Shown one piece after another: positions 20,825 through 43,717 of a DNA stretch of 64,000 nucleotides. The position numbers were made by a program, and so were the translations under genes. The notes under the pieces are model-generated. The model had not been told where the DNA came from and ran no database searches. It saw nothing but the letters and a program-made list of their open reading frames with translations. This DNA is from Candidatus Shapirobacteria bacterium. GTDB taxonomy: Bacteria > Patescibacteriota > Microgenomatia > UBA12405. The stretch lies in NCBI GenBank assembly GCA_028704885.1, contig JAQWEN010000001.1:651203-715202 (forward strand), read 5' to 3'. The first letter of the stretch is position 1. Each line of letters opens with the position of its first letter.

Positions 20825-20914
20825 GATGAAGGACCCCCTCTTATTTAATTTGGATATAGCTGTGATTTAAAAGAACTTTACCGTTACAAACAAGATGTTT
20901 TTTAACGTGGGTGG

Positions 20915-21397: not shown

Positions 21398-21486
21398 TTA
21401 TTATTTCCTCCAATATTGGGAATGTCAGCAGCGATGTAAAGGTGCTTTTTTTATGTTACAAAACGCGACGTTTTGAACATGGGTAT

Positions 21487-21514
21487 ATTTTACCTAATTA
21501 TAGGTGAAAGTCAA
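21487..21514 (-). promoter_or_regulatory. sigma70-like promoter for small gene B (-35 TTGACT, 16-nt spacer, -10 TAAAAT)
   Basis: The minus strand reads TTGACTttcacctataattaggTAAAAT. Downstream leader carries the 7-3-7 palindrome caaaacg-tcg-cgttttg. Confidence 0.6.
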
Positions 21515-21543
21515 GAAATGATAAATTGTCGAAATAATTTTTT

Positions 21544-23175: not shown

Positions 23176-23180
23176 AGAAA

Positions 23181-23222
23181 CCCCTCCGCCCTGCGGGCAC
23201 TTCCCCTTGATGAAAGGGAGGA
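23181..23222 (+). repeat. GC-rich double-hairpin repeat element, copy R1 (gatA-gatB spacer; supplies the gatB SD)
   Basis: Sequence acccctccgccctgcgggcacttccccttgatgaaagggagg, with hairpins gccc-tgc-gggc and tcccctt-gatgaa-agggagg. Related copies lie at 29654, 43359 and 43676. Confidence 0.6.
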
Positions 23223-23253
23223 ATTAATTTTTTTTAAAATATTTTTTTTCATT

Positions 23254-24717
23254 TTATATTTTTGGGGTTTGAAGATGATAATCGGTAAATTGCTGATATT
23301 GATTAGCAATCGAAAGAATCTTTGATTCTTCAAAGAAATTTCCGATTAATTGAAAACCAATGGGAAGATTTTCTTGATTAAAACCACAAGGAAGAGCAAC
23401 TGAGGGAACCCCGGCAACATTGATACAAACAGTAAAAGCATCAACCAAATACATTTGAAGCGGATCATTGGCTTTGGCACCAATATCCCAAGCAACGGTC
23501 GGAGAAACAGGAGCCAAAATAACATCGACTTCTTTTAGGGCATTAGTAAATTCATTTTTAATAAGAGTGCGGACTTTTGAAGCTTTGGTGTAATAGGCAT
23601 CATAATAGCCAGAAGATAGGGCATATGTACCAATTAAAATTCGACGTTTGACTTCGGCTTCCATATATTGACCACGAGTATTCATATAATAAGAAGTGAT
23701 GTCAGGATTATTATCGGTGTTGCGACCAAAACGAATACCATCATAACGAGCCATGTTAGCGGAAATTTCGGAAGGAACCAAAATATAATAAACAGCAATA
23801 CCAAGATTGGTGTTGGGCAAGGAAATATCGACCAAAATGGCACCTTTGCTTTGAAAAAGTTTGGCGGCGGCCATGACTTTTTCTTTAACTTCGGTATTAA
23901 TCGGATCAATAAAATATTCTTTTGGTAAGCCAATTTTTAGGCCTTTTAAATCAACATTATTTAAAATTTCTGAATAATCTGGGACTGGATTATCAATGGT
24001 GGTGGCATCTTTTGGATCAACTCCGGCAGTAATTTTAGTAAGTAAAGCTAAATCGGCGACATTTTTGGCGAAAACACCAGGACAATCGAAAGATGAAGCC
24101 ATGGCGGTGATACCGTAACGAGAATTTAATCCGTAAGTTGGTTTTAAACCACTGATATTGCATAATGAAGCCGGTAAACGAATGGAACCACCAGTGTCAG
24201 TACCGAGGGCAAATTGACAAAGATCGGCCGCTACAGCGGCAGCAGAACCACCAGAAGAACCACCGGGTACCTTAGATAAATTCCAGGGATTTTTGGTGGT
24301 GAAAAAACCAGAATTTTCAGTTGAACCACCGAAAGCAAAAGGATCAGTATTGGTTTTGCCAATAATTATGGCATCTTCGTCAATCAATTTTTGATAAATA
24401 GTAGAAGAATATTGAGGAAGGTAATCTTTTAGAACCTGAGAACTGGCAGTAGTTTGAATATCTTTGGTAAGAAAAATATCTTTAACAGCCATGACAGCAC
24501 CGGCTAACTTACCAACTGATTCCCCCTTTTTAATTTTTGAATCTATAATTTCTGCCTGTTTTAAGGCTTCTTTTTCAGTAATTGTAATAAAGGCTTTGAT
24601 CTGAGGATCGATTTTTTTTATTCTTTGCAAATAAAATTTAACAATATCGACGGCAGAAATTTGCTTTGAAAAAAGCAATTCTTGAATTTGAGAAATAGTT
24701 AAACTTTTTAAATCCAT
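23254..24717 (-). CDS. gatA: glutamyl-tRNA(Gln) amidotransferase subunit A
   Basis: Amidase signature GGSSGGSAAAVAA and conserved K...S. The start is chosen at MDLKSL (24717), which abuts the gatC stop. The 34-aa upstream extension in the ORF track is not conserved-looking. Confidence 0.93.
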   Translation of the reverse strand: MDLKSLTISQIQELLFSKQISAVDIVKFYLQRIKKIDPQIKAFITITEKEALKQAEIIDSKIKKGESVGKLAGAVMAVKDIFLTKDIQTTASSQVLKDYLPQYSSTIYQKLIDEDAIIIGKTNTDPFAFGGSTENSGFFTTKNPWNLSKVPGGSSGGSAAAVAADLCQFALGTDTGGSIRLPASLCNISGLKPTYGLNSRYGITAMASSFDCPGVFAKNVADLALLTKITAGVDPKDATTIDNPVPDYSEILNNVDLKGLKIGLPKEYFIDPINTEVKEKVMAAAKLFQSKGAILVDISLPNTNLGIAVYYILVPSEISANMARYDGIRFGRNTDNNPDITSYYMNTRGQYMEAEVKRRILIGTYALSSGYYDAYYTKASKVRTLIKNEFTNALKEVDVILAPVSPTVAWDIGAKANDPLQMYLVDAFTVCINVAGVPSVALPCGFNQENLPIGFQLIGNFFEESKILSIANQYQQFTDYHLQTPKI

Positions 24718-24718
24718 A

Positions 24719-25018
24719 TTATTTTCGAATAGTCCCAGGAACAACAAAATAACCGTCTTGAGTTTTTGGAGCGGTGGAAAGAGCTGTTTTTTGATCAAAA
24801 GATTCGACAACCTCATCATTTCTTAAGACATTTTTTTGGTCGTTAACGCGATAAGTAGGCTCAATATTATCAACATTGGCCTGATTTAAAACATCGAGAT
24901 ATTCTAAAACAGACTCGAGTTGAGGCAAAAAGGTGGTTTTTTCGGATTCGGATAAGTTGATGCGGGCTAATTTGGCAATATGTTCCAAATCGGCCATAGA
25001 AATCTTTGGTTCAGACAT
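24719..25018 (-). CDS. gatC: aspartyl/glutamyl-tRNA amidotransferase subunit C
   Basis: 99 aa with a GatC-like N-terminus (ISMADLEHIAKLARINLSESE). Confidence 0.85.
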   Translation of the reverse strand: MSEPKISMADLEHIAKLARINLSESEKTTFLPQLESVLEYLDVLNQANVDNIEPTYRVNDQKNVLRNDEVVESFDQKTALSTAPKTQDGYFVVPGTIRK

Positions 25019-25031
25019 AATGTATTTTACC

Positions 25032-26075
25032 TTATTTTCTTAAAATTGAAGCTTTGAGACGAAGAATTTTCCAGCGGATTTTATCAACAGAATTGTAGGC
25101 TTGGTATAAAAGTGGATTGATGACTAAATCATAGGTGCCGACATACTCGACTAACTGACCACCATAACCTTGTTTAAAACGATGGAAACCGTAACCATTT
25201 TCCCCTTCTTTGGCATGAGGGCCAAGGCAACCCCACATATCAAAAGTGGTACATTTTAATTTTTGACCAAGTTTTATTACTTCCCACATTAAAAGAGTTG
25301 GAGCCATGACTTGACGATTAATATCGAGAGAGGCACCATAAGGATAAAATAATTTATCTTTAATATTAAAAATCATAAAAGCGGAAAGAACTTGGTTTTG
25401 ATAAGAAGACAACATAATGTGAATCATGCCGGTATCTTTTAGTTTTTTCCATAAATCACGATGATATTTTTCACTGTGAAGATAAAATCCTTGGCGTTTG
25501 GTGGTATCAAAAAGTAACTCTAAATAAATTTCAAAACCTTTATCGTCGGTTTGTTCTTTAACTTCGACACCATAACGATTGGCAACCCGAATGTTGTAAC
25601 GAGTTTTAGGATGCATTGATTCTAAAAGCTGGTCTTCGGTTTTATTTAAATCAACTAAATAAGTAAAAGGATAAAAGGCAACCTTGGGGGATTTTTTAAG
25701 ATGATTAAACTGTGGCTTTGGATTTAAATTAGTTTCATTACCAAAACTATCAATATTTTTATGAATTATATTGGGTTCGAATTTGACAAAAATAGCATTT
25801 TCTTTTTTGGCAATTTCGGTGATTTTTTCAATCATAAAATCATCAATATTTGGACCCCGAAGTGAAGTACCAATGGAAAATTTGGTTTTAGGAATTTTAT
25901 GAAAACTGACAGAATAGGCAGAAATCATTTTATCGTTATCATCGAAAACACCAAAACGATAAACAGTGTGGCCTTGAGTTATTTGAAAATCGCCCCAATC
26001 CCAAGTCTGAACTGGATGAACAATTAATGAGTCATATTTTTCTTTATCTTTATCGGTAAGAATTCGGGTAATCAT
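25032..26075 (-). CDS. FemAB-family aminoacyl-tRNA-dependent peptidoglycan peptide-bridge transferase
   Basis: 347 aa with FemX/FemA-like blocks (HPKTRYNIR, KLFYPYGASLD, MWG, GYGFHRFKQGYGG). Confidence 0.7.
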   Translation of the reverse strand: MITRILTDKDKEKYDSLIVHPVQTWDWGDFQITQGHTVYRFGVFDDNDKMISAYSVSFHKIPKTKFSIGTSLRGPNIDDFMIEKITEIAKKENAIFVKFEPNIIHKNIDSFGNETNLNPKPQFNHLKKSPKVAFYPFTYLVDLNKTEDQLLESMHPKTRYNIRVANRYGVEVKEQTDDKGFEIYLELLFDTTKRQGFYLHSEKYHRDLWKKLKDTGMIHIMLSSYQNQVLSAFMIFNIKDKLFYPYGASLDINRQVMAPTLLMWEVIKLGQKLKCTTFDMWGCLGPHAKEGENGYGFHRFKQGYGGQLVEYVGTYDLVINPLLYQAYNSVDKIRWKILRLKASILRK

Positions 26076-26084
26076 AATAGTAGT

Positions 26085-27980
26085 TTAGTATATATCAGGA
26101 TCGTAGATGAGATCATCGTCATTTTTGGAATTTTTTCCATGACGATAATCGTGAATAATTTCTAAACTTTCTTCAAATTCAACTAATTCTGGTGGAATAT
26201 CAGCTAAAAATCGACTTGGTTCATTTAAACTGCTTTTGCCAAAAAATAAACGACGAGTGGCATAGGAAATATAAAGATAATCTTTGGCGCGAGTAATGCC
26301 AACATAACAAAGACGACGTTCTTCTTCTATTTCTGATTCATTAATTAAACACCTAGAATGAGGCAAAATTCCCTCTTCAAAACCAACCATAAAAACAACT
26401 TCAAATTCCAAACCTTTAGCACTGTGGAGGGTCATTAATTTTACACCGTCTCTGTTTTCTTTTTTCTTATTTTTTTCCTGGAGGGAATATTCTTGTTGAA
26501 CTAAAGTAATGTTTTCCAAAAATCCAATAAGACTAGGATGAGCGGCGGCAACCGATTTTAATTCCTTAATGTTTTCAATTCTTTTTTGATCCTCTTCATC
26601 TTTGGCATCAAATTTATCAAGATAGCCAGAATTAACAACTAATGATTCTAAAATTTGAAGAGAAGTGAGATTTTCTAAATCCATACTTTTAAGATGTTCA
26701 AGAAGAACGGCTTTTTTGCGTTTACCTAAAGCTTTTTCGATTCTTTCTTCAGAAATATGGTCAGAATCATTACTGGCAAAACGAAGCATAGATAAAATAT
26801 CTTTGATTTCGGCACGTTCATAAAAACGAATACCGCCCAATAAAACATAAGGAATACTAAGACGTAAAAAGGCTTCTTCGAGAACACGGGACTGAGCATT
26901 CATGCGGTAAAGAACGGCTATATTTCGAAGAGGAATTTTTAAATTGTCATTTATAAATTTAACTTTTTGAGCAATAAAATCAGCTTCGGCAACTTCTGAT
27001 TCGGCTTCAAAAATTTTTATTTTATCTTCTGAAATTTTTTTGGTAAATAATTTTAAAATAGGATGAGAATTATTTTTGGAAATAACAGCATTAGCAGCAT
27101 CAAGAATAATTTGAGTAGAGCGATAATTTTCCTCAAGATTAATAACTTTAGTATTTTTAAAATCGGCGGTAAAACTGACAAGGTTTCGGTAATCAGCTCC
27201 GCGCCAGCCATAGATAGCTTGAGAGGCATCACCAACAACAGTGATTTGATTGTATTTTTTGGCGAGAAGTTTAGTGAGAAGATATTGGATTTGGTTAGTA
27301 TCCTGATATTCGTCAACCATAATAAATTTATATATTTCTTGGTATTTAGCCAAAACATCGGGATATCCTAATAATAATTCGGCGGTTTTAAAAAGAAGAT
27401 CATTAAAATCGAGAGCATGAAATTCAAATAATTTTTTTTGATAAAGTGAATAAATTTTGACAGCATAATCTTGCCAAAAACCATGACTTTGGGCACTCAT
27501 TTCTTTTGGAGTTTGAAAAGAATTTTTGGCGGCTTCGATAAAATATAAGACACTAGATGGTTTAAATTCTTTAGTAGTTAAACCTAATTCATGAAGAATA
27601 TTCTTAATTAAATTCTCTTGATCATTGGTGTCATAGATAACAAATTTGGAAGGGATGCCAATATTGTGACCATCGACACGTAAAACCCGACAACAAAAAG
27701 AATGGAAAGTCCCAGCAAAAAAGGAATTAGGTTGGAGATCTTTGATCGTAGATAGGAGTTTGTTAGTACGGGTTTTCATCTCTTCAGCGGCCTTGTTGGT
27801 AAAAGTGAGAAGTAAAATTTCTGATGGTTTAGCGATTTTTTGTTGAATAAAATAAGCAACCCGATGAGTTAGAACCCGAGTTTTACCAGAACCGGCACCG
27901 GCTAATAGAAGAAGCGGCGAGCCAACATGGGTGACGGCTTCTTTTTGAGGTGGATTTAATCCTTCTAAAATATCTTGCAT
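26085..27980 (-). CDS. uvrD: UvrD/PcrA-family ATP-dependent DNA helicase
   Basis: LNPPQKEAV...AGAGSGKTRVLTHRVAYFI, VDEYQDTNQIQ and LMTLHSAKGLEFEVVFMVG. The ATG at 27980 is preferred over the TTG at 27986. Confidence 0.9.
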   Translation of the reverse strand: MQDILEGLNPPQKEAVTHVGSPLLLLAGAGSGKTRVLTHRVAYFIQQKIAKPSEILLLTFTNKAAEEMKTRTNKLLSTIKDLQPNSFFAGTFHSFCCRVLRVDGHNIGIPSKFVIYDTNDQENLIKNILHELGLTTKEFKPSSVLYFIEAAKNSFQTPKEMSAQSHGFWQDYAVKIYSLYQKKLFEFHALDFNDLLFKTAELLLGYPDVLAKYQEIYKFIMVDEYQDTNQIQYLLTKLLAKKYNQITVVGDASQAIYGWRGADYRNLVSFTADFKNTKVINLEENYRSTQIILDAANAVISKNNSHPILKLFTKKISEDKIKIFEAESEVAEADFIAQKVKFINDNLKIPLRNIAVLYRMNAQSRVLEEAFLRLSIPYVLLGGIRFYERAEIKDILSMLRFASNDSDHISEERIEKALGKRKKAVLLEHLKSMDLENLTSLQILESLVVNSGYLDKFDAKDEEDQKRIENIKELKSVAAAHPSLIGFLENITLVQQEYSLQEKNKKKENRDGVKLMTLHSAKGLEFEVVFMVGFEEGILPHSRCLINESEIEEERRLCYVGITRAKDYLYISYATRRLFFGKSSLNEPSRFLADIPPELVEFEESLEIIHDYRHGKNSKNDDDLIYDPDIY

Positions 27981-27992
27981 GGACAAAATTAA

Positions 27993-30335
27993 CTATAGTT
28001 GGTAAATCTTAGTTTTACCAGACTGAAATATAATTTGCCCACCAATTTTTATAAAATTATCTTCATTTAATTCAGGATATTTTTCGTATTCTTTGGTACC
28101 AACAAAAATATATTGAATATTATATTTTTGAATTAATTTTTTTAATCGATTAAGATCTGAACTTGATGATTCGTTTTTAGTTTCTGGAATTTCGGCATAC
28201 AGAATTAATTTTTGATTTGGATGAATTAATGAGGGATTTTCTAAATTATTAAGCGATGCAATTTCTTTCCATAAATATTCATTTTTAAGTTGTTCTTTTG
28301 AAATTTTCCAAAGTGTATCTCCAGAAGAAACAGTATATTCAATATTTTTATTATTTTCTAATGGTTCATTGTTTTTAGTTGATGATTCATAGATGGCTTG
28401 AACGTCGTCTTGGCGTTGTTTTGGTTTATCGTAACCTCCACGCCAAAGCCATTCATGAACTATCCAACCTTCAACAGTTGGAAGGCCGGTAGCGACAGAA
28501 ATTTGATTGAAAGTAGTATAACTATCACCTACTGCTTCAAGCATGACTGGTTGACCGGAAATATTTTTGTTAATCCAATCAATCGCTTTAAAATTATCAG
28601 AATAACCGTCTTTTAAGTAATTTAAACCCCACAATCCTTGATAAGTTTTTGAGCCGTAAAATGATTTAATGGCAAAATAGGGATAAATTAAATGGATTGA
28701 AAAAATTAAAGTAAAAAGAATACCATATAAAATATTTGGAATTTTGGATTTTAATAATAATCTGGTTTTGTAAAAAACATAGCCGGAAACTAGGGCATAC
28801 ATCATGAAGGCCTGATAAACTAATTTGAACATGGTGTTGGCGCGACGGTGTTCGTAAATATAAATATCCTTTAAGTAAACTAATTCGGGAATAATAATCA
28901 AAATAGTGGCGGTAATGATCAGAGCAAAAACAAAAAGATCAGAATTTGAATTATAATTTTTAATTTTTAATTTGAAATTTTTAATAAACGATAATATCAG
29001 GGGTAAAACAATTAACCAAAAACCACCATATAAAATAAACAATTGATAAAAAGCACTGTGACCATCAGAAATTCTGATACCATTAGTCATGGGAACAAAA
29101 TTTGAAGAGAAGGGAATACTAAAAATAAACCAAGCTGCAATTGTTAAGACTCCATTGATTAAAGTTTTTTTAATAGCTGATTTTCGATCATTTTTAAGAT
29201 TCAAAAAGAAAGTAAAAACAGCAAAAAGAAGACCATAAATAGCAAAATCCCAAGCATTGGTCATATAAGCAATTGACAAAACAAAACCGGAAATAATAAT
29301 AACAGGATAGTTAATTAAAGCAGAAGAAAAAAAACTTGAAGCTAATAAAAAAGCCATAAAAAATAAGACAATAGGAATGTCATTCATATGACCATGAAGG
29401 TCAGCAACGACAAAACTATAAAGTGGAAACTCGTGAATAGTTTTATCTTTAATATCAGGGTCGTGACCAATAAAACGAGTGGCGTCTGGATACCAATATT
29501 TATCGGCTGACTCACTAATAGCTTTTTTTGATAAAACTAATTTGCCATTATCTTGAATATCTATTTTGGCAATTTTATAAACTGAATGAAGATTGCCACC
29601 AAAAGTTAGAAGAAGAGCTGAAATTAAACCAGCGATGATAATTTTTGGAACAAACCCACCCGCCCTATGGGCACCCTCCCTTGACAAGGAGGGCTTTATT
29701 GTTAAAAAAACTAGATTTGAAGCAATAGAAAAAGTAAAAGAAAAGGTAAAAGCACAAACAGTGGCTATAGATAAATTGTAAGTAATAGCCGAACTAATGG
29801 TGCTTAATTTAGTTAAAACAGCAAAAATTATATGACCAAAATAATAATAATTAATAATTTCACCAGAAAACCACATGTCTTGGGGAGGTAAAAATTTAGA
29901 ACGTAGGGCTGAATTAATAAAACCCCAATCCATATATTTTTCCAAACCTTCAATATCTGAGGCAAAACCCCTAACAAAAGACCAAACAACTAGAATTGAA
30001 AGAAATAAAATTTCTTGAAAAATGAAAACCTTATAATTTTCTTTAATAATTTTTAAAAATAGAGATAAATTATTTTTGTATCTAAGAAATAAAATATTTA
30101 GTAATAAAATTAGGGCTAAGATTAAAAATAAATTTAAATTACTAAAAACTAAAATTTTAAAAACACCACCGACTAAAATTAGATAAGTTGAAAAAACAAT
30201 ACAAATAATTTTGGAAAAAATATAACCCTTATCCCAAAATTTTTTAAATAGGAAAACAGTTATTGGCAAAGTTAAAAGACCTAAAGAAAAAATCAAAAAC
30301 CACCAAGAAATAATTGGAGTTAGATCGGACAACAT
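27993..30335 (-). CDS. large polytopic membrane protein (about 13+ TM helices) with C-terminal LysM domain
   Basis: Hydrophobic N-terminal 500 aa with the YWYPDATRFIGHDPD...HEFPLYSFVVADLHGH block. The C-terminal LysM is YTVSSGDTLWKISKEQLKNEYLWKEIASLNNLENPSLIHPNQKLIL. Contains the in-frame GC-rich element R2. Confidence 0.6.
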   Translation of the reverse strand: MLSDLTPIISWWFLIFSLGLLTLPITVFLFKKFWDKGYIFSKIICIVFSTYLILVGGVFKILVFSNLNLFLILALILLLNILFLRYKNNLSLFLKIIKENYKVFIFQEILFLSILVVWSFVRGFASDIEGLEKYMDWGFINSALRSKFLPPQDMWFSGEIINYYYFGHIIFAVLTKLSTISSAITYNLSIATVCAFTFSFTFSIASNLVFLTIKPSLSREGAHRAGGFVPKIIIAGLISALLLTFGGNLHSVYKIAKIDIQDNGKLVLSKKAISESADKYWYPDATRFIGHDPDIKDKTIHEFPLYSFVVADLHGHMNDIPIVLFFMAFLLASSFFSSALINYPVIIISGFVLSIAYMTNAWDFAIYGLLFAVFTFFLNLKNDRKSAIKKTLINGVLTIAAWFIFSIPFSSNFVPMTNGIRISDGHSAFYQLFILYGGFWLIVLPLILSFIKNFKLKIKNYNSNSDLFVFALIITATILIIIPELVYLKDIYIYEHRRANTMFKLVYQAFMMYALVSGYVFYKTRLLLKSKIPNILYGILFTLIFSIHLIYPYFAIKSFYGSKTYQGLWGLNYLKDGYSDNFKAIDWINKNISGQPVMLEAVGDSYTTFNQISVATGLPTVEGWIVHEWLWRGGYDKPKQRQDDVQAIYESSTKNNEPLENNKNIEYTVSSGDTLWKISKEQLKNEYLWKEIASLNNLENPSLIHPNQKLILYAEIPETKNESSSSDLNRLKKLIQKYNIQYIFVGTKEYEKYPELNEDNFIKIGGQIIFQSGKTKIYQL
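29654..29693 (+). repeat. GC-rich double-hairpin repeat element, copy R2, located in-frame inside the 27993-30335 CDS
   Basis: Sequence acccacccgccctatgggcaccctcccttgacaaggaggg. It encodes KPSLSREGAHRAGG in a loop between TM helices. Confidence 0.55.
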
Positions 30336-30337
30336 AA

Positions 30338-30910
30338 CTATTTAATAAAGAAAACAAAATTAAAAATCGTTCTGATTATTTCAGTAAGAAAAACTGGTAA
30401 AACAATCCATTTTGAAAGTAGCCAAATAAGGCTACCAGCAATTATTCCACCAAACATATCGATTGGATAATGAAAACCAATAAAAATACGGAAAAACAAA
30501 AGGGGTGAAACTATTGATAAAAATAAAGGAACTGAAAAAACTTGATATTGGATAATAAACAAAAGAAAATAAAGACTTTTAATGGTGTGACCAGAAGGGA
30601 AGGAACCAGTTTTATACCATTTTTTAACTAAACCTGGAGGAAGATTATCATTTTTCTCAAAAAGTGGTCGACGCCAATAAATTTTGCTTTTTAAAAAACG
30701 TTCAAAAAATTCAGCAATAATTGTAGCAATAAGAATCTGCCAAAAAATATTGGCATCTTTTCTGATTAAGAGATAAGAAACATAAAAGAAAAAAAACCAG
30801 ATTATATAATTAAGAATAATTAAGATTTTTTTTCTTAATAAGTTTTGTTCAAACCAGAGTAGCCAATCTTTTTTAGGCTGCCAAAATAAAAGCGATTTTA
30901 AAAAACTCAT
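30338..30910 (-). CDS. PAP2-family lipid phosphate phosphatase
   Basis: Motifs KSKIYWRRP (KxxxxxxRP), FPSGHT (PSGH) and FRIFIGFHYPIDM (SRxxxxxHxxxD-like). Six TM helices. Confidence 0.8.
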   Translation of the reverse strand: MSFLKSLLFWQPKKDWLLWFEQNLLRKKILIILNYIIWFFFFYVSYLLIRKDANIFWQILIATIIAEFFERFLKSKIYWRRPLFEKNDNLPPGLVKKWYKTGSFPSGHTIKSLYFLLFIIQYQVFSVPLFLSIVSPLLFFRIFIGFHYPIDMFGGIIAGSLIWLLSKWIVLPVFLTEIIRTIFNFVFFIK

Positions 30911-30953
30911 TCATTTATTATAAAACCTTTTTGAATATTGTTATAATTCAGTT

Positions 30954-36208: not shown

Positions 36209-36254
36209 CGATATACTATCATACCACCAAAAATGTTTAGCTCTAAAAACGAAA

Positions 36255-37589: not shown

Positions 37590-37925
37590 TTATGGTGTGG
37601 TTTTGTTTAATGTACCTGCGGATGTACTTGTAGGTGTGATTATTGGCTCAATTTGAATTGGATTTATAGTATCTTCTGTTGGTTTGAAAGATTTAATAAT
37701 TGAAAAATCAAAAGGTTCTTCTGTATTTTTATTTTTTGATTCAATAGTAGAAATAATAGATAAATCTAGTGTTGGATTAATCTCTTTTAATAAAACATTA
37801 TTTTCAACCAATGTCTGTGGTTTTTTAAAAGAAAAATAACTCTTTTGAACAATAGAGAAAAATATAGTTACAAAAGTAAGAAAAGATATAAAAACAAAAT
37901 AGGAAGTAATTCTATTTTTTTTCAT
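37590..37925 (-). CDS. hypothetical small membrane protein with Pro/Thr-rich tail
   Basis: Start chosen at MKKNRITSYFVFISFLTFV, which overlaps the pilO-like gene by 14 nt. The ORF-track start at 37997 would overlap 86 nt. Confidence 0.3.
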   Translation of the reverse strand: MKKNRITSYFVFISFLTFVTIFFSIVQKSYFSFKKPQTLVENNVLLKEINPTLDLSIISTIESKNKNTEEPFDFSIIKSFKPTEDTINPIQIEPIITPTSTSAGTLNKTTP

Positions 37926-38550
37926 TGTTGTTGGGTAAAAAATATAAATCACTGGAAAGACTAATTTTAATATTTTTTGAATTAGCTTGATTGACACTAT
38001 CTGAATTTATTTGATTAATTTTAATATTGACAGTGTTGGCCAAGCGACGATTATTAAATATTTTCTTTACCATTTCTAAAACTGAAGAATATTGACCTTC
38101 ACCATTTATGTTAACTTGATAAGATTTATAAAATTGATTTTTATTATTTTCTTCTTTGTCTAAATTTAGACTAATTTGATTTATGTCTAATGATGATTCT
38201 TTAAAAATGGTAGCTAAATTAGAAGTACCTTTATAATATTGACCAAGAGTAGGAAAACTGTCTTCAATTAGAGAATATTTTTCCTGCACCTTAGCGTATG
38301 ATTCTTGAGCTTTAATAACATTGGCAATTTTTGAATCAACTTTTTCGATAAAAGCCTCTTTAGACTTTATGTCTCCCATCAAAGAAAAAATAGTAGTCAT
38401 AGTCGGCATGATGGCAAAAAAGAGAAAAATAGCGATTAAAGTGAAAGTACCACCAATTTCCAAATATTTTAAGAATTTCTCATTTTCAGCCTGTTTACGA
38501 ATGTAACTATACATTGGTCGAAGCTGAAACCAGTTTTTAGTGTCGATCAT
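37912..38550 (-). CDS. pilO: type IV pilus assembly protein PilO-like
   Basis: N-terminal cytoplasmic segment, one TM helix (GTFTLIAIFLFFAIMP), a coiled coil and a C-terminal periplasmic domain. Follows the PilN-like gene with a 4-nt overlap. Confidence 0.45.
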   Translation of the reverse strand: MIDTKNWFQLRPMYSYIRKQAENEKFLKYLEIGGTFTLIAIFLFFAIMPTMTTIFSLMGDIKSKEAFIEKVDSKIANVIKAQESYAKVQEKYSLIEDSFPTLGQYYKGTSNLATIFKESSLDINQISLNLDKEENNKNQFYKSYQVNINGEGQYSSVLEMVKKIFNNRRLANTVNIKINQINSDSVNQANSKNIKISLSSDLYFLPNNNEKK

Positions 38551-39125
38551 ATTTTAGTAACTGCCTTGGTTGTTTTAAAAAATAAAGTAAGGGAAATGGA
38601 ATATTTATTTTCTTTTTCTTTCTTTTCTATTTTATTAATATCTACCTGATCAATGTCAGGATTTAGCATAAGGTTAGTAATAAAAGAAACTATACTTTCC
38701 TCTTTATATGCGGTTAAGGAAGTATCAATAACAGTTGATTTTATTTTTTCATCCCTGGAAACTGAAAGACTTTCATAAAATAAATCTTCGGGAGTACTTG
38801 TGATTAGTGAATTGATTTGGTTGCTATATTCTGGTTGATTGGAATAAAAATCCTTGATATAGCTTAGTCTTTGCTGTAATTGGACAAATTCTGTCTCAAA
38901 AGGAACAATGCTTTCCAACACTGCTTGTTTTTGACGAGCAATTTCGGAAAGATCAGAATTTTTACGATCTAACCAAAAACGAGAAATAAAAACAGAAATA
39001 ACAATTAGTTCGGTTAAAATTATAGTGACTCTACCGGTAGTAGTAATCCATTTGAAAAAACGAGCCCCAAATGATCTTGGGTTTTCGGATTCAGGTAAAA
39101 GAGAAATCTCTTTTTTTACAGCCAT
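38547..39125 (-). CDS. pilN: type IV pilus assembly protein PilN-like
   Basis: N-terminal ISLLPE (the INLLP-type motif), one TM helix and a coiled coil. 192 aa. Confidence 0.5.
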   Translation of the reverse strand: MAVKKEISLLPESENPRSFGARFFKWITTTGRVTIILTELIVISVFISRFWLDRKNSDLSEIARQKQAVLESIVPFETEFVQLQQRLSYIKDFYSNQPEYSNQINSLITSTPEDLFYESLSVSRDEKIKSTVIDTSLTAYKEESIVSFITNLMLNPDIDQVDINKIEKKEKENKYSISLTLFFKTTKAVTKI

Positions 39126-39142
39126 ATATTCAGTATATACGA

Positions 39143-40756
39143 CTATTTGCGGAAAATAAAATCCTTAAATTTAAAATAGTATTTTTGGTAATCTTTAACT
39201 TCTTCCAACTTTAAGAAGTTAACTGAAAATATGTAGGTAATTAAGCCAATAAATGAAGAAATCAGAGTTAAAGTTAGAACTGGAATAACATGGGTAGTAT
39301 CTAAAATAAAAAGATCTAGAAATTTAATAGATAACCAACTGCTAATCCCCATTAAAACTGCTGATATTGATATTTTGTAAAATTTAGTGAACATAGTAAA
39401 CCAATTAAAACCATCCACAATCTTAATAAACATAGTTAATAAACCAAAAAGCTGAATTAAGTTACCAACAGATGCACTAATAGCCAAACCAACAACACCG
39501 AGACTAGTAAAGTTAACAAAATAATAACTGGTAACAATATTTACAGCCAAGGAGATCATGGAGATAAAAAATGGAACTTTAGTATTATGAAGAGCATAAA
39601 ATGCTCTAATTAAAATTTGAATTACGGCTTGACAAATTATGCCGGGAACTAAAAAGGCTAAAATTTTGGAAGTTAAAATAGTGGCTGTCCAGGGAAACTC
39701 ACGAGATCCATAGAGAAGTCTAATAATAGAGACTCTTTCGACTAAAATTAAAATACTAATAGGAACAGCAATAAATAAACTTTGAATTATAATTCGATGG
39801 ACGGTAGTTCTAAAAGTGTTTAATTCATTTCGGGCGATGTTTTTTGAAAGAATTGGTAATGAAGCTTGACCAACAGTAGTACCAAAGATACGACTAGGCA
39901 AATACATAAATTGGAGAGCTAAATTTAGAAGAGAGATAGATCCAGAAGCTAAGGTACTGGCAAAAAAGAGAGTAACAGTATTTTCAATTTCACCCAAACC
40001 TAGGGATAAAATTCTGGGGATCATGAGACGAAAAATTTCTTTAACTCCACTTAATTTTGTCCTGATTATAGGGTAATAAACAAAACCCTGACGGCGGAGG
40101 ACGGGGACTTGAATGGCAAAATGAAAAAAGGCACCAACAACAGCGCCGATGGCAACTCCATAAATACCAAAAATTGGAGCTAGGGTAAAAATACTGATAA
40201 TAATGAAGAGATTGTAAATAATAGGGGTGAGGGCAGGAACAATAAAAACTTGATTAACTTGAAGAATGGCAGTGGCAAAATTACTAAGAAGAAAAAATAT
40301 TTGAGCAATAAGTAAAATTCGACTAAGACTGGCCATTAAAGATAGTTGATCCGGAGAAAAACCAGCAGCGATAAGGCTAGAGATTGGTTTAATAAAAATA
40401 AAAGCAATTATGGAAATAATTGTGAAGGCAATTAAAAGAAGATTAATAACAGTGGAAGCAATTTCGTCGGCAACTTTCTTATTTTTATGTAAATAATTCG
40501 AAAAAACTGGGATAAAAGAGGCTGACAGAACACCGGTAACTAATAATTTAAAAATTAGGTCGGGAAGGCGAAAAGCGGCATTATAAACATCGAGTTGGGC
40601 TAAACAGCAGGAAAAAAACTTAGCATATAAAAAACGATTTCTTAAAAGACCAAGGATTGAAGAAAGACCAAAAGCTATGGCTAAAACTAAAGAAGCTGAC
40701 AAAATGGTACTTTGTTTTTTTTGACTTATTAGCTGAATCCTCTCTTTAAAGGTCAT
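39143..40756 (-). CDS. murJ: lipid II flippase MurJ (MviN family)
   Basis: 537 aa, 14 TM helices. N-terminal LSASLVLAIAFGLSSILGLLRNRFLYAKF and RLPDLIF blocks typical of MurJ. Confidence 0.85.
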   Translation of the reverse strand: MTFKERIQLISQKKQSTILSASLVLAIAFGLSSILGLLRNRFLYAKFFSCCLAQLDVYNAAFRLPDLIFKLLVTGVLSASFIPVFSNYLHKNKKVADEIASTVINLLLIAFTIISIIAFIFIKPISSLIAAGFSPDQLSLMASLSRILLIAQIFFLLSNFATAILQVNQVFIVPALTPIIYNLFIIISIFTLAPIFGIYGVAIGAVVGAFFHFAIQVPVLRRQGFVYYPIIRTKLSGVKEIFRLMIPRILSLGLGEIENTVTLFFASTLASGSISLLNLALQFMYLPSRIFGTTVGQASLPILSKNIARNELNTFRTTVHRIIIQSLFIAVPISILILVERVSIIRLLYGSREFPWTATILTSKILAFLVPGIICQAVIQILIRAFYALHNTKVPFFISMISLAVNIVTSYYFVNFTSLGVVGLAISASVGNLIQLFGLLTMFIKIVDGFNWFTMFTKFYKISISAVLMGISSWLSIKFLDLFILDTTHVIPVLTLTLISSFIGLITYIFSVNFLKLEEVKDYQKYYFKFKDFIFRK

Positions 40757-40832
40757 AATTTGAATTATATCTGATTATTAACTAGATTATATATGGTTGT
40801 AAATAAGGAAAAGATAAGATAAAATATTGCTC

Positions 40833-41153
40833 ATGCCAATCAGTTTATCTGCAAAAAAATCACTAAGAAAGTCCTTAAAAAATCATAAGGATAATGTTTC
40901 TTTTAAAAATACGCTTAAAACTACTGTTAAAAAGTTTTTAGCTAAGCCAACTGCTGAAGGTTTAAAAGAAGTTTATTCTATTTTAGACAAGGCTGTAAAA
41001 AAGAATCTTTTTCACAAAAATAAAAGCGACAGACTTAAGTCTAACTATTCCAAAAAAGTTGGAACCGAAGGGGTTAAGAAAGTTGTAGTTAAAAAAAGAC
41101 CAGCTAAAAAAGTGGTTAAAAAGACAGGTAAAAAGTCTAATAAAAAAATGTAA
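40833..41153 (+). CDS. rpsT: 30S ribosomal protein S20 with Lys-rich C-terminal extension
   Basis: MPISLSAKKSLRKSLKNHKDN...KNLFHKNKSDRLKS matches S20 (SAKKR...; G.IHKNKAAR.KS). The ATG at 40833 is preferred over the TTG at 40827. Confidence 0.75.
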   Translation: MPISLSAKKSLRKSLKNHKDNVSFKNTLKTTVKKFLAKPTAEGLKEVYSILDKAVKKNLFHKNKSDRLKSNYSKKVGTEGVKKVVVKKRPAKKVVKKTGKKSNKKM

Positions 41154-41197
41154 TAGCCACAGAAGTTTGGATTTATCCAAATAATGTGGCAAAATAG

Positions 41198-41228
41198 GAG
41201 TATCGAAAGATACTCTTTTTTGTTTTTT
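41198..41228 (+). terminator. rho-independent terminator after rpsT
   Basis: Hairpin gagtatc-gaaa-gatactc followed by ttttttgtttttt. Confidence 0.65.
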
Positions 41229-41239
41229 AAAGTTAAACT

Positions 41240-42646
41240 ATGAACAAATTTTTTATAACAACCCCAATTTATTACATTAATGATATTCCTCATATCGGTC
41301 ATACCTGTACAACGGTGGCGGCTGATGTGGTGGCCAGACTTCACCGAGCCAAAGGAGAAGAGGTTTTCTTTTTGACCGGAACTGATGAGCATGGACAAAA
41401 AGTGGCGGAAACAGCCCAAAAAGAAGGCTTGGAAGTTAAAGCATATTGCGATAAAATTTCACCAAGATTTGAAGAAGCTTGGAAAAAGTTGGACATTAGT
41501 TTTGATTTTTTTATCAGAACTACTGATCCTCGACATGAAAAAGTGGTAGCCGAAGTTTTGCAAAAAATTTACGATAAAGGTGATGTTTATAAAGCCAAAT
41601 ATGAAGGCTTATATTGTGTCGGCTGTGAAAAATTTTTAACTGAATCAGAATTAGTTGATAATCATTGTGGACTTCATCCACCAGAAAAAACCGTTTTTAA
41701 AAGTGAAGAAAATTGGTTTTTTAAATTGAGTAAATATGTGCCGGAAATTATTAAACTGATTGAAAATGATAAAACTAATTACATCTACCCTATTGGAAAA
41801 AAACTGGAAATATTGGCAAAACTTAAGTCTGGAGTAAAAGATGTTTCGATATCCCGGGAAAATGTGGAATGGGGAATTCCAACCCCTTGGGACAAAAGCC
41901 AAACAGTTTATGTATGGTTTGACGCTTTAATTAATTATTACAGTGCAACACAGTTTGTCGAAGGTAAAAAAGACTTTTGGCCGGCTGATTTACATTTATT
42001 AGGAAAAGAGATTTTATGGTTTCATACTGTTATCTGGCAAGCAATGTTGTTGTCGGCTGAAATTTCGTTACCTAAAAAAACTTATACTCACAGTTTTTAT
42101 ATGATTGATGGTCAAAAAATGTCCAAATCATTGGGAAATGTAATTTCGCCACAACAATTAGTTGATCTGTTTGGAGTAGAGGAGAGTAAATATTTAATTG
42201 TCAGATCTTTTCCGTCAGAAAATGATTCGGATGTGGGTATTAATCGATTTAAAGAAAAATATAATGCAGATTTAGCCAATAATTTGGGAAATTTAGTTTC
42301 TAGAGTAGCTAAATTAGCTGAAGGACAAAAAACAGAAGAAGAGAAAATTGAGTTTGATAATGAATTTGAAGAATTAATTAATAATCTTAAATTAGACGAA
42401 GCATTTGAATTGGTTTTTAATAAATATGTTGATGCTTCAAATTTAAAACTAAATCAAACTAGTCCATGGAAATTGGAAAAAGAAAATCCAGAAAGAATTG
42501 CTGTCTTAAACGAATGTATCAAAAACATTCGAAAAGCTGCCTTTCATCTCCAAATTTTAATGCCAAAAGTGGCAGAAAAAATCGAAAATTGCTTTAAAAA
42601 TGAAGTAAAACCGCTTTCAGAATCTTTATTTCCGAGGATAAAATAA
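41240..42646 (+). CDS. metG: methionine--tRNA ligase (short form, no C-terminal tRNA-binding domain)
   Basis: HIGH motif (DIPHIGHT), KMSKS (KMSKSLGN), zinc knuckle CVGCEKF...HCGLH and YVWFDALINY. 468 aa. Confidence 0.92.
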   Translation: MNKFFITTPIYYINDIPHIGHTCTTVAADVVARLHRAKGEEVFFLTGTDEHGQKVAETAQKEGLEVKAYCDKISPRFEEAWKKLDISFDFFIRTTDPRHEKVVAEVLQKIYDKGDVYKAKYEGLYCVGCEKFLTESELVDNHCGLHPPEKTVFKSEENWFFKLSKYVPEIIKLIENDKTNYIYPIGKKLEILAKLKSGVKDVSISRENVEWGIPTPWDKSQTVYVWFDALINYYSATQFVEGKKDFWPADLHLLGKEILWFHTVIWQAMLLSAEISLPKKTYTHSFYMIDGQKMSKSLGNVISPQQLVDLFGVEESKYLIVRSFPSENDSDVGINRFKEKYNADLANNLGNLVSRVAKLAEGQKTEEEKIEFDNEFEELINNLKLDEAFELVFNKYVDASNLKLNQTSPWKLEKENPERIAVLNECIKNIRKAAFHLQILMPKVAEKIENCFKNEVKPLSESLFPRIK

Positions 42647-42647
42647 G

Positions 42648-43358
42648 ATGATTGATACCCATGCTCACTTGGAAAGATTGTGCGACATTGATAAGGGGAT
42701 TGATAAAATCATTTTGGCGGCATCAGATGTGACTGATTCAAAAAATAACCTATTATTGGGCGAAATATATCCAGATAAATTATTGGTAAGTGTAGGTATT
42801 CACCCAATGGAAAGCCAAGACTCCCCTGCTAAACTTGAAAAAATAGTTGAGGAAAATTATCAAAAAATTGGGGCAATTGGTGAATGTGGATTAGATTTCT
42901 CGGGTGAATTTGATAAAGAGAAGCAGATTATTGTTTTTAAAAAACAAATAGAATTGGCTCAAAAATATAAATTACCCTTAATCATTCATGCCAGAAAAGC
43001 AGTTGATGAAGTAGTGGAAATTTTAAAAGAATATAAGGATTTATCCGGAGTATTTCATTGTTATGCCGGTGGTAATAAAAGAATTAAAAAAATATTAGAT
43101 CTGGGATTTTATTTTGGAATTGACGGAAATTTGACTTATGAAGCGGGGTTGGAAGAAGTTGTGAAAAATATACCTAAAGATAGGCTGGTTTTAGAAACTG
43201 ATTCCCCTTATTTAACACCAGTACCATTTAGAGGTGAAATTAATAGTCCAAAAAATGTGGAATATATTTATAAAAAAGTGGCGGAAATTTGGGATTTAAG
43301 TTTTGAAGAAACAGAAAAAATAGTTGACGGAAATGCAAAAAGATTATTTGGTTTTTAA
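42648..43358 (+). CDS. tatD: TatD-family metal-dependent DNase/hydrolase
   Basis: MIDTHAHLE, GECGLDF and the conserved His/Asp/Glu pattern of TatD. 236 aa. Directly downstream of metG, as in many bacteria. Confidence 0.9.
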   Translation: MIDTHAHLERLCDIDKGIDKIILAASDVTDSKNNLLLGEIYPDKLLVSVGIHPMESQDSPAKLEKIVEENYQKIGAIGECGLDFSGEFDKEKQIIVFKKQIELAQKYKLPLIIHARKAVDEVVEILKEYKDLSGVFHCYAGGNKRIKKILDLGFYFGIDGNLTYEAGLEEVVKNIPKDRLVLETDSPYLTPVPFRGEINSPKNVEYIYKKVAEIWDLSFEETEKIVDGNAKRLFGF

Positions 43359-43403
43359 ACCCCTCTCTGGATAAACCGGCATCTCCCCTTGATAAAGGGG
43401 AAA
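43359..43403 (+). repeat. GC-rich hairpin repeat element, copy R3 (acts as convergent terminator after tatD)
   Basis: Sequence acccctctctggataaaccggcatctccccttgataaaggggaaa followed by a T-run. Hairpin tcccctt-gataa-aggggaa. Confidence 0.6.
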
Positions 43404-43405
43404 TA

Positions 43406-43648
43406 TTATTTTTGAAAGTCGGAAATGATGACTTCGAGCTCTTTAATTGATGGGTAGCGGTCCATAAAAGCAACTTCACCATCGATTAAAAGAATAGTTT
43501 TGCCTTGTAGACCCATACTGATTACTTTTGACATATCTTTGACATATTCCGGATCGTAATCAATTTGAAGACGCTGACAAGCAAGTTCGAGATTGGTAAA
43601 TAATTGCTTGCCTTGTGGAGTACCACGATCAAAAAGTTGAATTTTCAT
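43406..43648 (-). CDS. thioredoxin-fold small protein related to 'redox-active disulfide protein 2' but lacking the CxxC pair
   Basis: 80 aa. MKIQLFDRGTPQGKQ... aligns to the MKI-v-GtGCpkC family N-terminus with Cys replaced by T/Q. The C-terminus ILLIDGEVAFMDRYPSIKEL is conserved. Confidence 0.5.
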   Translation of the reverse strand: MKIQLFDRGTPQGKQLFTNLELACQRLQIDYDPEYVKDMSKVISMGLQGKTILLIDGEVAFMDRYPSIKELEVIISDFQK

Positions 43649-43675
43649 AATCTATTATAACAAAATCTCTCTCGG

Positions 43676-43717
43676 CTTCGCCGCATCTCCCTTTAATAAA
43701 GGGAGAAATTTTTTATT
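43676..43717 (+). repeat. GC-rich double-hairpin repeat element, copy R4
   Basis: Sequence ctctctcggcttcgccgcatctccctttaataaagggagaaa. Hairpins cggc-ttc-gccg and tcccttt-aataa-agggaga, followed by a T-run. Confidence 0.6.

Follow-up and report, generated by a model that had tools for sequence, protein, structure and literature searches.

A family of double-hairpin repeats in Candidatus Shapirobacteria and its candidate link to DUF559 nuclease genes in relatives

The REP/REPIN-RAYT systems of Proteobacteria combine short, GC-rich, dispersed hairpin repeats with a single small nuclease-type gene lying between inverted copies; solo copies far outnumber gene-linked ones, and the hairpins find secondary use as terminators or mRNA structures. 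The repeat described here, from a 64-kb stretch of a Candidatus Shapirobacteria genome (hereafter the window) and from related CPR loci, shares these properties. However, the REP partner is an HUH/Y1 transposase, whereas a Vsr-like PD-(D/E)XK nuclease of the DUF559 family is found in all six flanked genes here. In place of the 5' GTAG/GTGG tetranucleotide of REPs the present repeat has AAACCCNYC; its two hairpins are unlike, copies occur in frame within coding sequences, and the nuclease gene is multi-copy, with a repeat-encoded C-terminus in five of six units. REPs are dispersed and mostly extragenic; in the loci sampled here the density is about one copy per 13-17 kb, and about eight copies are truly intragenic. 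Rickettsia palindromic elements (RPE-1 to RPE-8), which Ogata et al. are said to have described in 2000, are reportedly 100-150 bp long and confined to Rickettsia, and we know of no partner enzyme for them. They resemble the present family in their patchiness among relatives and in inserting in frame so that the gene stays intact (DUF2298 and TatD here), but are set apart by description, the modules in Candidatus Shapirobacteria being ~45 bp and DUF559-linked.

MITEs such as Neisseria Correia, RUP and ERIC are small, non-autonomous and insertion-polymorphic and descend from the ends of a parent that carries a gene, all of which the present modules appear to share, and can supply promoters, terminators or ribosome-binding sites (PMC10969869). 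Whereas MITEs have terminal inverted repeats, the ends of a solo module are not complementary, and the module would represent a single parent end; inverted repeats appear here only at the level of the DUF559 unit. The MITE parent also encodes a DDE transposase, in contrast to the nuclease of the present parent. The EDxHD/Vsr-like homing endonucleases, such as I-Bth0305I, fall in the same nuclease superfamily clade as DUF559 (PMC3424549), a clade with members proven to be homing endonucleases (PMC3424549, PMC3239194). The EDxHD/Vsr-like genes are selfish, standing free or borne by introns or inteins, and their targets are pseudopalindromic (PMC3239194, PMC2677866). Known members carry NUMOD/HTH DNA-binding domains and use a single allelic site with no dispersed hairpin repeat, unlike the DUF559 proteins considered here, which are ~120-aa nuclease domains with a repeat-encoded tail. 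With IS200/IS605 elements and PATEs the modules share hairpins that are subterminal and not inverted terminal repeats, a short fixed sequence beside which insertion occurs, no evident duplication of the target and a strong single-strand orientation bias, but they combine a hypervariable hairpin 1 with a hairpin 2 unlike it. No earlier description was found in the literature on CPR palindromic elements or MITEs and on DUF559/COG2852/YcjD.

A sequence-only reading of the window had proposed four copies of a double-hairpin repeat, all in + orientation and alike far above background. The ~45-bp family is real, and was understated. A covariance model built from R1-R4 and seven CPR copies recovered all four at the places proposed (50-67 bits, E 1e-14 to 1e-19, all E ≤ 3e-14), a fit that is partly by construction because R1-R4 were among the training copies. 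It also detected a partial fifth copy and many further copies in relatives. All five window copies lie on the + strand, and the extents of R1-R4, refined to include an invariant AAA, are given below.

9294-9325, + strand: R5, partial fifth copy without hairpin 1; 16.2 bits, E 0.0035
23178-23221, + strand: R1, starting AAA-CCCCTCC; 62.8 bits
23181-23187, - strand: GGAGGGG, complementary to the C-tract of R1 and lying 5 nt ahead of the gatB start codon (ATG at 23175)
29652-29694, + strand: R2, starting AAA-CCCACCC; 50.4 bits
43357-43403, + strand: R3, starting AAA-CCCCTCTCT; 67.1 bits
43662-43706, + strand: R4, starting AAAA-TCTCTCTC and followed by a T-run; 53.8 bits, fold z -4.0

Nothing comparable to R1-R4 was found elsewhere in the window: minus-strand model matches were only the palindromic hairpin 2 read in reverse, and a match at 63508-63558 was dismissed as weak and coding-like. 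Shuffling rules out chance, a degenerate 23-mer of hairpin 2 having three matches against 0.01 expected and a second repeat pattern three against 0.00. No Rfam family matched the window or 16 loci at gathering score (matches at E up to 10 were chance-level only), and a tRNA/tmRNA scan showed nothing relevant to the repeat. The layout is AAA, a C-rich tract (CCCCTC/CCCACC), hairpin 1 and hairpin 2, and structure prediction folds both hairpins as the earlier reading described. Hairpin 2 is conserved (YCTCCCYTT-GAYAA-AGGGRG, loop TTGAYA), with a modest covariation signal and Y-run/R-run stems that also pair when slid. Hairpin 1 varies in sequence and length across copies, its pairing being kept by differing sequences (GCCC/GGGC, CUGG/CCGG, CGGC/GCCG). 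In 43 of 43 copies the C-tract directly follows AAA, within a 5' motif AAA-CC(C/T)(C/A)(C/T)C and commonly at a TTTAAA boundary, and the family divides into subfamilies. A switch in which the 5' C-tract would compete with the 5' arm of hairpin 2 was rejected, as subfamily A (CCCACC with CCCTCC/GGAGGG) has a tract that does not complement the 3' arm.

The sites occupied in the window are varied. R1 (hairpin 1 at 23188-23198, GCCC-TGC-GGGC; hairpin 2 at 23200-23221) belongs to an 82-bp insertion, completed by 39 bp of A/T-rich DNA (to about 23260), in the gap between gatA and gatB, genes that overlap (ATGA) in relatives. The earlier proposal that R1 supplies the gatB ribosome-binding site agrees with the placing of GGAGGGG, which by its position may act as the Shine-Dalgarno sequence. 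R2 (hairpin 1 at 29662-29672, GCCC-TAT-GGGC; hairpin 2 at 29674-29693) is not intergenic, which the earlier inventory had missed, together with the fifth copy and the DUF559 link. It lies inside the coding sequence of a DUF2298 membrane protein (27993-30335, minus strand, 780 aa; product 100% identical to the annotated 780-aa protein P0001), and its antisense, translated in the frame of the gene, gives K-PSLSREGAHRAGGF-VPK in a short loop that separates two hydrophobic segments. R3 (hairpin 1 at 43367-43379, CTGG-ATAAA-CCGG with one G.U pair; hairpin 2 at 43384-43401) fills the gap between the convergent stop codons of tatD (+) and an 80-aa thioredoxin-like gene (-), the tatD TAA overlapping its AAA, so the placing at the tatD 3' end holds. 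R4 (hairpin 1 at 43673-43683, CGGC-TTC-GCCG; hairpin 2 at 43687-43705) is upstream of that 80-aa gene (43406-43648, minus) and antisense to it and to a 173-aa gene (43719-44240, minus); like R1, it thus lies antisense between co-directional minus-strand genes, as had been noted. R5, composed of AAATCCCTCT, AAAT and hairpin 2 (CTCCCTTTGATAAGGAAG), occupies the intergenic gap between nusA and infB, antisense to both.

Presence and absence at orthologous sites were seen in related genomes, where R1-R4 each have empty sites at an A-run/T-run junction. The R1 site reads CCAAA^TTTATGA in L002 and L004; the R2 insert is missing from most DUF2298 homologs (KKINFKK at that position) and from L004 DNA; in L028 the TAA at the R3 site is followed directly by TTA; and the R4 site, empty in L024 (..ACAAAA^TTTATTTTTT..), L023, L025, L027 and L028, holds a copy from the same or another subfamily in L031, L033 and L026. 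The TatD loci that lack R3 and R4 are at 76-88% identity. Insertion was at AAA^TTT in all four compared sites, whose flanks are low-complexity; element boundaries and target duplication cannot be fixed there because the AAA/TTT flanks are ambiguous and the empty and filled alleles have diverged. Across 588 kb (the window plus related CPR loci) there were 34 matches at E < 1e-3; in all, about 40 copies beyond those of the window were seen in this related DNA. The family is multi-copy in many Microgenomates/Shapirobacteria contigs, and one and the same subfamily can turn up at unrelated loci and beside DUF559 genes. A hairpin-2 pattern matched 18 loci among GTDB representatives, and no viral contig matched the repeat pattern. 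Insertion polymorphism, multi-copy contigs and subfamilies support the earlier likening to REP/MITE-like small interspersed elements. Several lineages carry copies at the tatD 3' end and ahead of the thioredoxin-like gene; selection favouring a hairpin at these places, and not insertion time after time, could account for this.

Copies are found within coding sequences in both orientations. Related inserts are present in 19 of 60 DUF2298 homologs and in DUF2298 of L001/L002, and in-frame inserts in tatD of L056, L033, L042, L048 and L040, that of L056 carrying three. The insert in the DUF2298 protein P0011, PSLSREGARRAGGFN, differs from the R2 peptide by one residue and is identical to the C-terminal end of P0189, a DUF559 homolog.

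At the DNA level, inverted family copies bracket all six DUF559 genes examined in relatives (L010, L012, L076, two in L078, L079). The complete unit, seen in relatives only, is ~0.5 kb long and comprises a TTTAAA-CCCNYC tract, hairpin 1, hairpin 2, a spacer, the DUF559 ORF and an inverted module, with TTTAAA at both outer ends in the L076 and L078b units. The spacer between upstream module and ORF is conserved at ~25 nt in three of the six units and is 21-23 nt in two; the sixth has 65 nt from the module to the first in-frame start. In five units the ORF reads into the downstream copy, ending at the outer end of the module in four and inside its hairpin 2 in one, and in the remaining unit it stops 7 nt before. 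Hairpin 2 and its loop are the same or nearly the same at both ends of a unit and differ between units. Even within one unit hairpin 1 is not the same at both ends, which would be unusual in a site recognised by a protein. The loop TTGAYA resembles a -35 box, and in three units a -10 (TAATAT/TAAACT) at suitable spacing closely precedes a GTG start; solo modules were rejected as outward promoters, the solo copies of the window being without a -10 at the right distance.

The partner gene is assigned to DUF559 (PF04480) at 89-91 bits against a cut-off of 20.6, and its nearest solved structure is 3hrl (E 1e-13). Residues E37, E76, D78, H82 and D89 are invariant and D65 nearly so, a catalytic-type set (E, D, ExD, H, D). 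Homologs number more than 7,900 among up to 8,000 candidate matches listed, and the gene is multi-copy, often on short broken contigs. Element-derived C-terminal peptides terminate 111 of 120 homologs, and tail class follows the nuclease-core phylogeny, being shared by 88 of 100 nearest neighbours where shuffling predicts 22. No DUF559 gene is present in the window or in the loci anchored on TatD and DUF2298, where most solo copies lie, so the link for this genome is made only through family membership.

On balance we think it probable that the five copies are solo, non-autonomous ~45-bp end modules of a small DUF559-nuclease selfish element widespread in Microgenomates/Shapirobacteria, the DUF559 gene being the best candidate for the agent that spreads the repeat. 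Solo modules would insert at A-run/T-run junctions (AAA^TTT), between or inside genes. The antisense frame of a module would remain open because it encodes the nuclease tail, and an insertion into a coding sequence in that frame would therefore add ~11-17 loop residues and leave the gene unbroken, R2 in the DUF2298 gene being a putative case. We suppose that a dimeric nuclease recognises the palindromic hairpin 2, as duplex or extruded hairpin, and cuts at the module boundary, after which host repair or replication would copy modules to new sites. A strand-asymmetric step linked to replication is suggested by the same-strand copies across this neighbourhood: 22 matches at at least 12 distinct sites in syntenic loci lie on one strand, independent of gene direction. 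A tie between copy orientation and transcription was rejected, as independent sites between co-directional genes (orthologous sites collapsed) are antisense in about five cases and sense in three, which is not significant. Wobble pairs did not identify the folding strand: hairpin 2 has 26 T.G against 33 C.A cells, with no asymmetry, and hairpin 1 about five against one towards the + strand, numbers too small to use. RNA folding energies are often better for the minus strand.

The sequence-only reading had also seen the copies as terminator-like in + orientation, a reading that would hold at most for copies at gene ends and fails as a general function. In + sense, hairpin 2 with a target T-run would resemble an intrinsic terminator, as for R3 after tatD, and a simple terminator scan accepts hairpin 2 of R2, R3 and R4. 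In relatives, about 11 copies lie in sense directly after stop codons, in convergent gaps. At the 3' end of the helicase gene, L055 and L028 have the family element and the window a canonical terminator unrelated to it (52007-52034). Such evidence, and the retention of pairing in both stems as their sequence changes, is what would be expected if the repeats were ordinary functional RNA hairpins, terminators or mRNA-stabilising or processing structures, alike through shared constraints and local duplication and immobile. We judge this very unlikely. Position and shape fit R3 and those 11 or so copies, but a role in termination cannot extend to the family as a whole, since in the window four of five copies run antisense to local genes and one, R2, is translated. 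In-frame copies in tatD and DUF2298 in both orientations, the AAACCCNYC tract and TTGAYA loop, which termination does not need, identical subfamilies at unrelated loci and by DUF559 genes, and clean empty sites in close relatives also argue against it. A terminator reading is plausible, from sequence, for copies at gene ends. Some copies probably do serve as terminators or supply a ribosome-binding site, the latter where the strand opposite the C-tract can function as a Shine-Dalgarno sequence, as proposed for R1 and gatB; on the favoured reading these would be secondary uses of selfish end modules.

A different agent of mobility is unlikely, although less so than immobility. Here the modules would be an independent REP-like family moved by another activity, for example a single-strand transposase of RAYT/IS200 type that works on the lagging-strand template, with DUF559 homing-endonuclease genes only targeting the modules or settling beside them, as parasites of the repeats. 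To our knowledge a PD-(D/E)XK nuclease has no strand-transfer activity of its own. Solo modules far outnumber DUF559-linked ones, with no DUF559 gene in any TatD-anchored locus, and the one-strand orientation, insertion beside a fixed AAA, and the solo module's lack of a terminal inverted repeat and of a clear target duplication are IS200/IS605-like. Third-position GC skew places the window on one compositional strand. However, tblastn with approximate IS608 TnpA and E. coli RAYT queries matched nothing in the window or the related loci sampled, a small set, and no Y1 transposase or TnpB was found there. The nuclease ORF enters the downstream module in five of six units, at full length in four, and three units keep the conserved spacer of ~25 nt from upstream module to start codon. 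Tail class co-diverges with the nuclease, and therefore points to long-term integration, not opportunistic insertion. We give least credence to the modules being sites that a DUF559-based defence or repair system binds or cleaves, a dispersed chromosomal signal of Chi or methylation/Vsr type and not mobile DNA. Vsr-family enzymes do act at specific short sequences, the one-strand bias resembles that of polar chromosomal signals, and in Brocadia the DUF559 gene is part of an operon of restriction-modification type (N6_N4 methylase, NTP_transf_2/HEPN, ResIII). But copy density is low (about one per 13-17 kb), copies are patchy among close relatives and present in coding loops, and the nuclease gene, multi-copy and often on short broken contigs, behaves like selfish repeats.

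Because CPR/Patescibacteria genomes are small and streamlined, a repeat gained and lost between close relatives and lengthening essential proteins is unexpected. The genes affected are tatD and DUF2298, with further copies in the gatCAB and nusA-infB operons, and the family would be a useful marker of strain-level dynamics. For annotation, element-derived peptides inflate ORFs and give spurious tails and N-terminal extensions; the repeats probably also break assemblies. The coupling of nuclease, cognate hairpin and mobilisation forms a testable hypothesis and, if true, would make DUF559, a very large family still lacking an assigned function, the driver of a class of bacterial interspersed repeats. 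A survey of the bacterial domain found that DUF559 genes stand out as 'inverted-repeat targeted' (PMC9881135), a statistic that such coupling could explain.

More broadly, we tentatively regard this as a REP/RAYT-kind repeat-plus-enzyme system built on a Vsr-like DUF559 nuclease with a repeat-encoded tail and seeding CPR coding loops, which may be a branch of a pan-bacterial association of DUF559 with hairpin repeats; the odds of this wider view seem to us slightly less than even. The Brocadia DUF559 gene is flanked by same-sense arrays and not by an inverted pair. Pan-bacterial C-tract/G-tract hairpin repeats would be the source of the DUF559 tails 'PSQEGN / PLPRGD / SLSREG', which were seen in Planctomycetota, KSB1, Nitrospirota, Ignavibacteria and others.

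All four of the GC-rich double-hairpin elements described in the sequence-only reading are present in the window, whose G+C content is 33%, and two degenerate patterns gave 3 matches there against 0.01 and 0.00 expected. R1-R4 share one order of parts: AAA, a C-rich tract (C-tract; CCCCTCC, CCCACCC, CCCCTCTCT or TCTCTCTC), hairpin 1 with a 4-bp G+C stem, (G)CAY, hairpin 2 with the consensus YCTCCCYTT-GAYAA-AGGGRG, and A/T-rich DNA with T-runs. A covariance model was built from R1-R4 and seven copies from elsewhere in the CPR (Patescibacteria). R1-R4 score 50-67 bits against this model, which was partly built from them, and it recovered a fifth window copy, R5, without hairpin 1. No Rfam family matched the elements in a scan of the window, and no tRNA was found near them. 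The five copies, and a palindrome discussed with them, are placed as follows:

23178-23221, plus strand: R1, between gatA and gatB, antisense to these co-directional minus-strand genes
29652-29694, plus strand: R2, within the DUF2298 gene, where the element's antisense strand is translated in frame as PSLSREGAHRAGGF
43357-43403, plus strand: R3, where tatD and an 80-aa thioredoxin-like gene converge, placed exactly between their stop codons
43662-43706, plus strand: R4, between a 173-aa gene and the 80-aa thioredoxin-like gene, antisense to these co-directional minus-strand genes
9294-9325, plus strand: R5, between nusA and infB, antisense to these co-directional minus-strand genes
52007-52034, plus strand: perfect palindrome with a 12-bp stem, GTAGGGGACAGGCATGCCTGTCCCCTAC then TTTTGTTTT, immediately downstream of the DEAD-box helicase gene (50705-51991)

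The 780-aa DUF2298 protein is 100% identical to an annotated Candidatus Shapirobacteria (CPR/Patescibacteria) MAG protein. Across 588 kb comprising the window and related loci from other genomes (L numbers, mostly CPR relatives), the covariance model gave 34 matches at E < 1e-3. The earlier proposal of a REP/MITE-like interspersed family is confirmed and extended: the repeat is real, differs in presence and absence between relatives, and is tolerated in frame. Hairpin 1 is present in every folded relative copy and varies widely in sequence and length (GTCC-TTC-GGAC, CCGG-ATAAA-CCGG, CCCCGAT-ATTC-ATCGGGG, CTCCGAC-ATAA-GTCGGAG), while hairpin 2 with its TTGAYA loop is conserved and defines subfamilies that pair with particular C-tracts. 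Between genes that run the same way, copies lie antisense; in gaps where genes converge, they follow stop codons immediately and lie in sense. Sense copies within operons are rare, and further copies sit in frame inside coding sequences, in both orientations. The tatD gene of L056 (6883-7731) carries three in-frame inserts and those of L033, L042, L048 and L040 also carry some; the extra TatD segments, one to three per homolog (RQIPLGSAASPFDKGDN, TPLSFGHPPLKKGTKT, NPSKSPFDKGDL, ESPSLKSFGGPR), are family elements translated from the sense strand.

At the 3' end of the helicase gene, L055 and L028 hold family elements where the window has the palindrome, which has the appearance of a canonical terminator with no relation to the family; this argues that a sense copy at the end of a gene can take a terminator's place. 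The suggestion that the elements are intrinsic terminators is plausible to this extent, and does not reach R1, R4 and R5, which are antisense, or R2, which is coding. Sense copies probably do serve as terminators, and R1 probably as the gatB ribosome-binding site.

Comparison with relatives revealed both empty and filled sites. In the syntenic L002 and L004, gatA and gatB overlap by ATGA, and the window carries 82 extra bp at this R1 site, made up of a 43-bp element and 39 bp of A/T-rich DNA. At the R2 position, the 60 closest DUF2298 homologs divide into 41 with K-K-I-N-F-K-K or another loop about as short and 19 with related inserts (PSLSREGARRAGGF, PSLSREGGPKFRTGF, CPVKGRVREGF, SLSKEGVPAKAGAGGF), one with a nested extra hairpin. 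This is a 24-nt hairpin, TACCCTCTTCGGGGCATCTATGGA, within hairpin 2 of the DUF2298 insert in L002 (10660-10723; L003 is identical), giving the longer peptide PSLSRSIDAPKRVEGARRAGGF, and it indicates that elements can themselves receive further insertions. At the R3 site L028 has no element, its TAA running straight into TTA, and L029, L037, L054 and L056 have other variants. At the equivalent site in L035 (~1703-1722) only ACTCCCCTATTTTATAAATA is present, which may be a decayed remnant retaining just the C-tract; in L023 the element is missing together with the final tatD codons, which fits a deletion between ATTATTT repeats. The R4 site is empty in L023, L024, L025, L027 and L028, filled in L031 by the same subfamily, with hairpin 1 almost identical apart from one extra loop base, and filled in L033 and L026 by another subfamily. 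In all four site comparisons insertion was at an A-run/T-run junction (AAA^TTT), with no target duplication established, and had the same polarity, the C-tract beside the A's and hairpin 2 beside the T's. It follows that the 'terminator' T-run is largely target-derived.

The single orientation previously reported holds for the window copies, all plus, with no comparable covariance match on the minus strand. Strand was tallied in loci anchored on tatD or DUF2298, which are therefore oriented like the window, and 22 of 22 matches, at 12 or more distinct sites, lie on the window-plus-equivalent strand. This set spans sense inserts in plus-strand tatD and antisense inserts in minus-strand DUF2298, and transcription direction does not account for the bias. 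Read on the plus strand, third-codon-position GC skew is above zero whichever way the genes run, at 0.21 for those on the plus strand and 0.44 for those on the minus, which places the window on one compositional (replication-type) strand. Wobble-pair counts gave no indication of which strand folds. The minus strand holds 42 of the 49 long ORFs in window 1-64000; the usual skew rule would put most window genes on the lagging strand, unless the skew of this lineage is unusual.

In relatives the family is physically coupled to DUF559 nuclease genes, and this association is robust and long-term. L010 and L012, recovered by DNA pattern only, each contain a small ORF between inverted element copies, and this ORF is a DUF559 protein (PF04480, 89-91 bits). 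Four more DUF559 genes at the DNA level (L076, two in L078, and L079) share the layout, making 6 of 6 units: TTTAAA-C-tract, hairpin 1, hairpin 2, spacer, ORF and inverted module. L076, L078a and L012 have a conserved spacer of ~25 nt, and a -35/-10-like pair immediately precedes their GTG start, with the loop TTGATN and TAATAT/TAAACT set 17 nt apart; L078b and L079 have spacers of 21-23 nt, and in L010 65 nt precede the first in-frame start. Four of the six ORFs read through the downstream inverted module and stop at its outer end (GGGTTT-TAA), the L078b ORF stops inside the downstream hairpin 2, and that of L010 stops 7 nt before the inverted module. The two ends of one unit agree fully or almost fully in hairpin 2 and its loop, and differ in hairpin 1.

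Homology searching recovered 175 DUF559 homologs from the CPR, many on short contigs and several contigs with two copies. Almost all of their C-termini are antisense translations of the element (LPLIKGRCHEVTEGF, ASLSREVPKGRRV, LPFLRGDV, SLVKGR, PPCQGRG), and a regular expression found an element-type tail in 111 of 120 homologs. The tail of one retrieved protein (P0189), PSLSREGARRAGGFN, is identical to the DUF2298 insert of another (P0011) and one residue off the R2 insert. Tail class follows the nuclease-core phylogeny, being common to 88 of 100 nearest neighbours versus 22 expected. Catalytic-type residues are conserved, and among solved structures 3hrl is the nearest. One PD-(D/E)XK clade holds DUF559, Vsr and the homing endonuclease I-Bth0305I (PMC3424549), and homing endonuclease activity is proven for EDxHD enzymes (PMC3239194). 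In a survey of programmed inversions, 'DUF559 domain-containing protein' was enriched among inverted-repeat-hit CDSs with an odds ratio of 14, uncommented there (PMC9881135). In the literature we found no paper tying DUF559 to a dispersed repeat or describing such repeats in CPR.

The window copies appear to be solo derivatives of the end module of a DUF559 unit. The nuclease may mobilise the modules, and an antisense frame kept open for its tail would allow coding insertions to be tolerated. The element behaves like the selfish repeats of the REP and RPE types, yet by the defining tests of each it is neither, and the enzyme partnered with it, the DUF559 nuclease, is different in kind.

The pattern scan also matched contigs labelled Cyanobacteria, Oscillospiraceae, Ruminococcus, Flavobacteriaceae and Chloroflexi. 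These matches share the layout of C-tract, variable hairpin and hairpin 2, which the pattern itself did not specify. The look-alikes, and a DUF559 gene from a wider search, are:

L011 (Adonisia), L013 (Oscillospiraceae), L016 (Ruminococcus) and L018 (Flavobacteriaceae): non-CPR look-alikes
L007, L009, L014, L019 and L022: non-CPR look-alikes, five matches in one Chloroflexi MAG
L080 9790-10410: DUF559 gene of Candidatus Brocadia pituitae (AP021856), between N6_N4 methylase and NTP_transf_2/HEPN/ResIII genes

The look-alikes consist of CCC[TA]CC, a variable hairpin and GGCACCTCCCTTTGAYAAAGGGAGG, often paired with an inverted GAGGGATT...AATCCCTC, and no DUF559 gene was found within 1.5 kb of them; their resemblance to the family may reflect homology, transfer or convergence. 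The wider search, with an approximate DUF559 query, gave more than 7,900 homologs among the matches listed (KSB1, Brocadiaceae, Nitrospirota, Ignavibacteria and others); among the best 120 of these, 52 have hairpin-type C-terminal peptides (PSQEGN, PLPRGD, PPKRGI) versus 0 in a core-region control. The Brocadia pituitae gene is followed by AACCCACCCCTTGCCCCTCCCAAGAGGGG, similar to the L079 unit's left end, and preceded by an array of same-sense C-tract/hairpin units that forms the methylase 3' end. Its tail, EPTPCPSQEGKI, is one more such unit, and the modules here are direct rather than inverted.

Other repeats were observed in the window. A promoter-like 48-bp sequence, read on the minus strand, occurs in two copies 83% identical (20899-20946 and 21471-21518; TTGACT, 17 nt, TAAAAT, then CCACCCACG), and downstream of each is a small ORF without a Pfam match (20480-20824 and 21041-21397); these ORFs are weakly alike (30% identity over 69 aa). 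A giant 3121-aa ORF (53373-62738, minus strand) with VWA and many SpaA/prealbumin-like domains contains internal 261-nt repeats at 58113-59708 and a 12-nt periodic stretch at 62391-62498. Two UvrD-type helicase paralogs on the minus strand (17310-20405 and 26085-27986) share DNA stretches 70-78% identical, for example 18231-18299 with 26259-26327, which is ordinary paralogy unrelated to the element.
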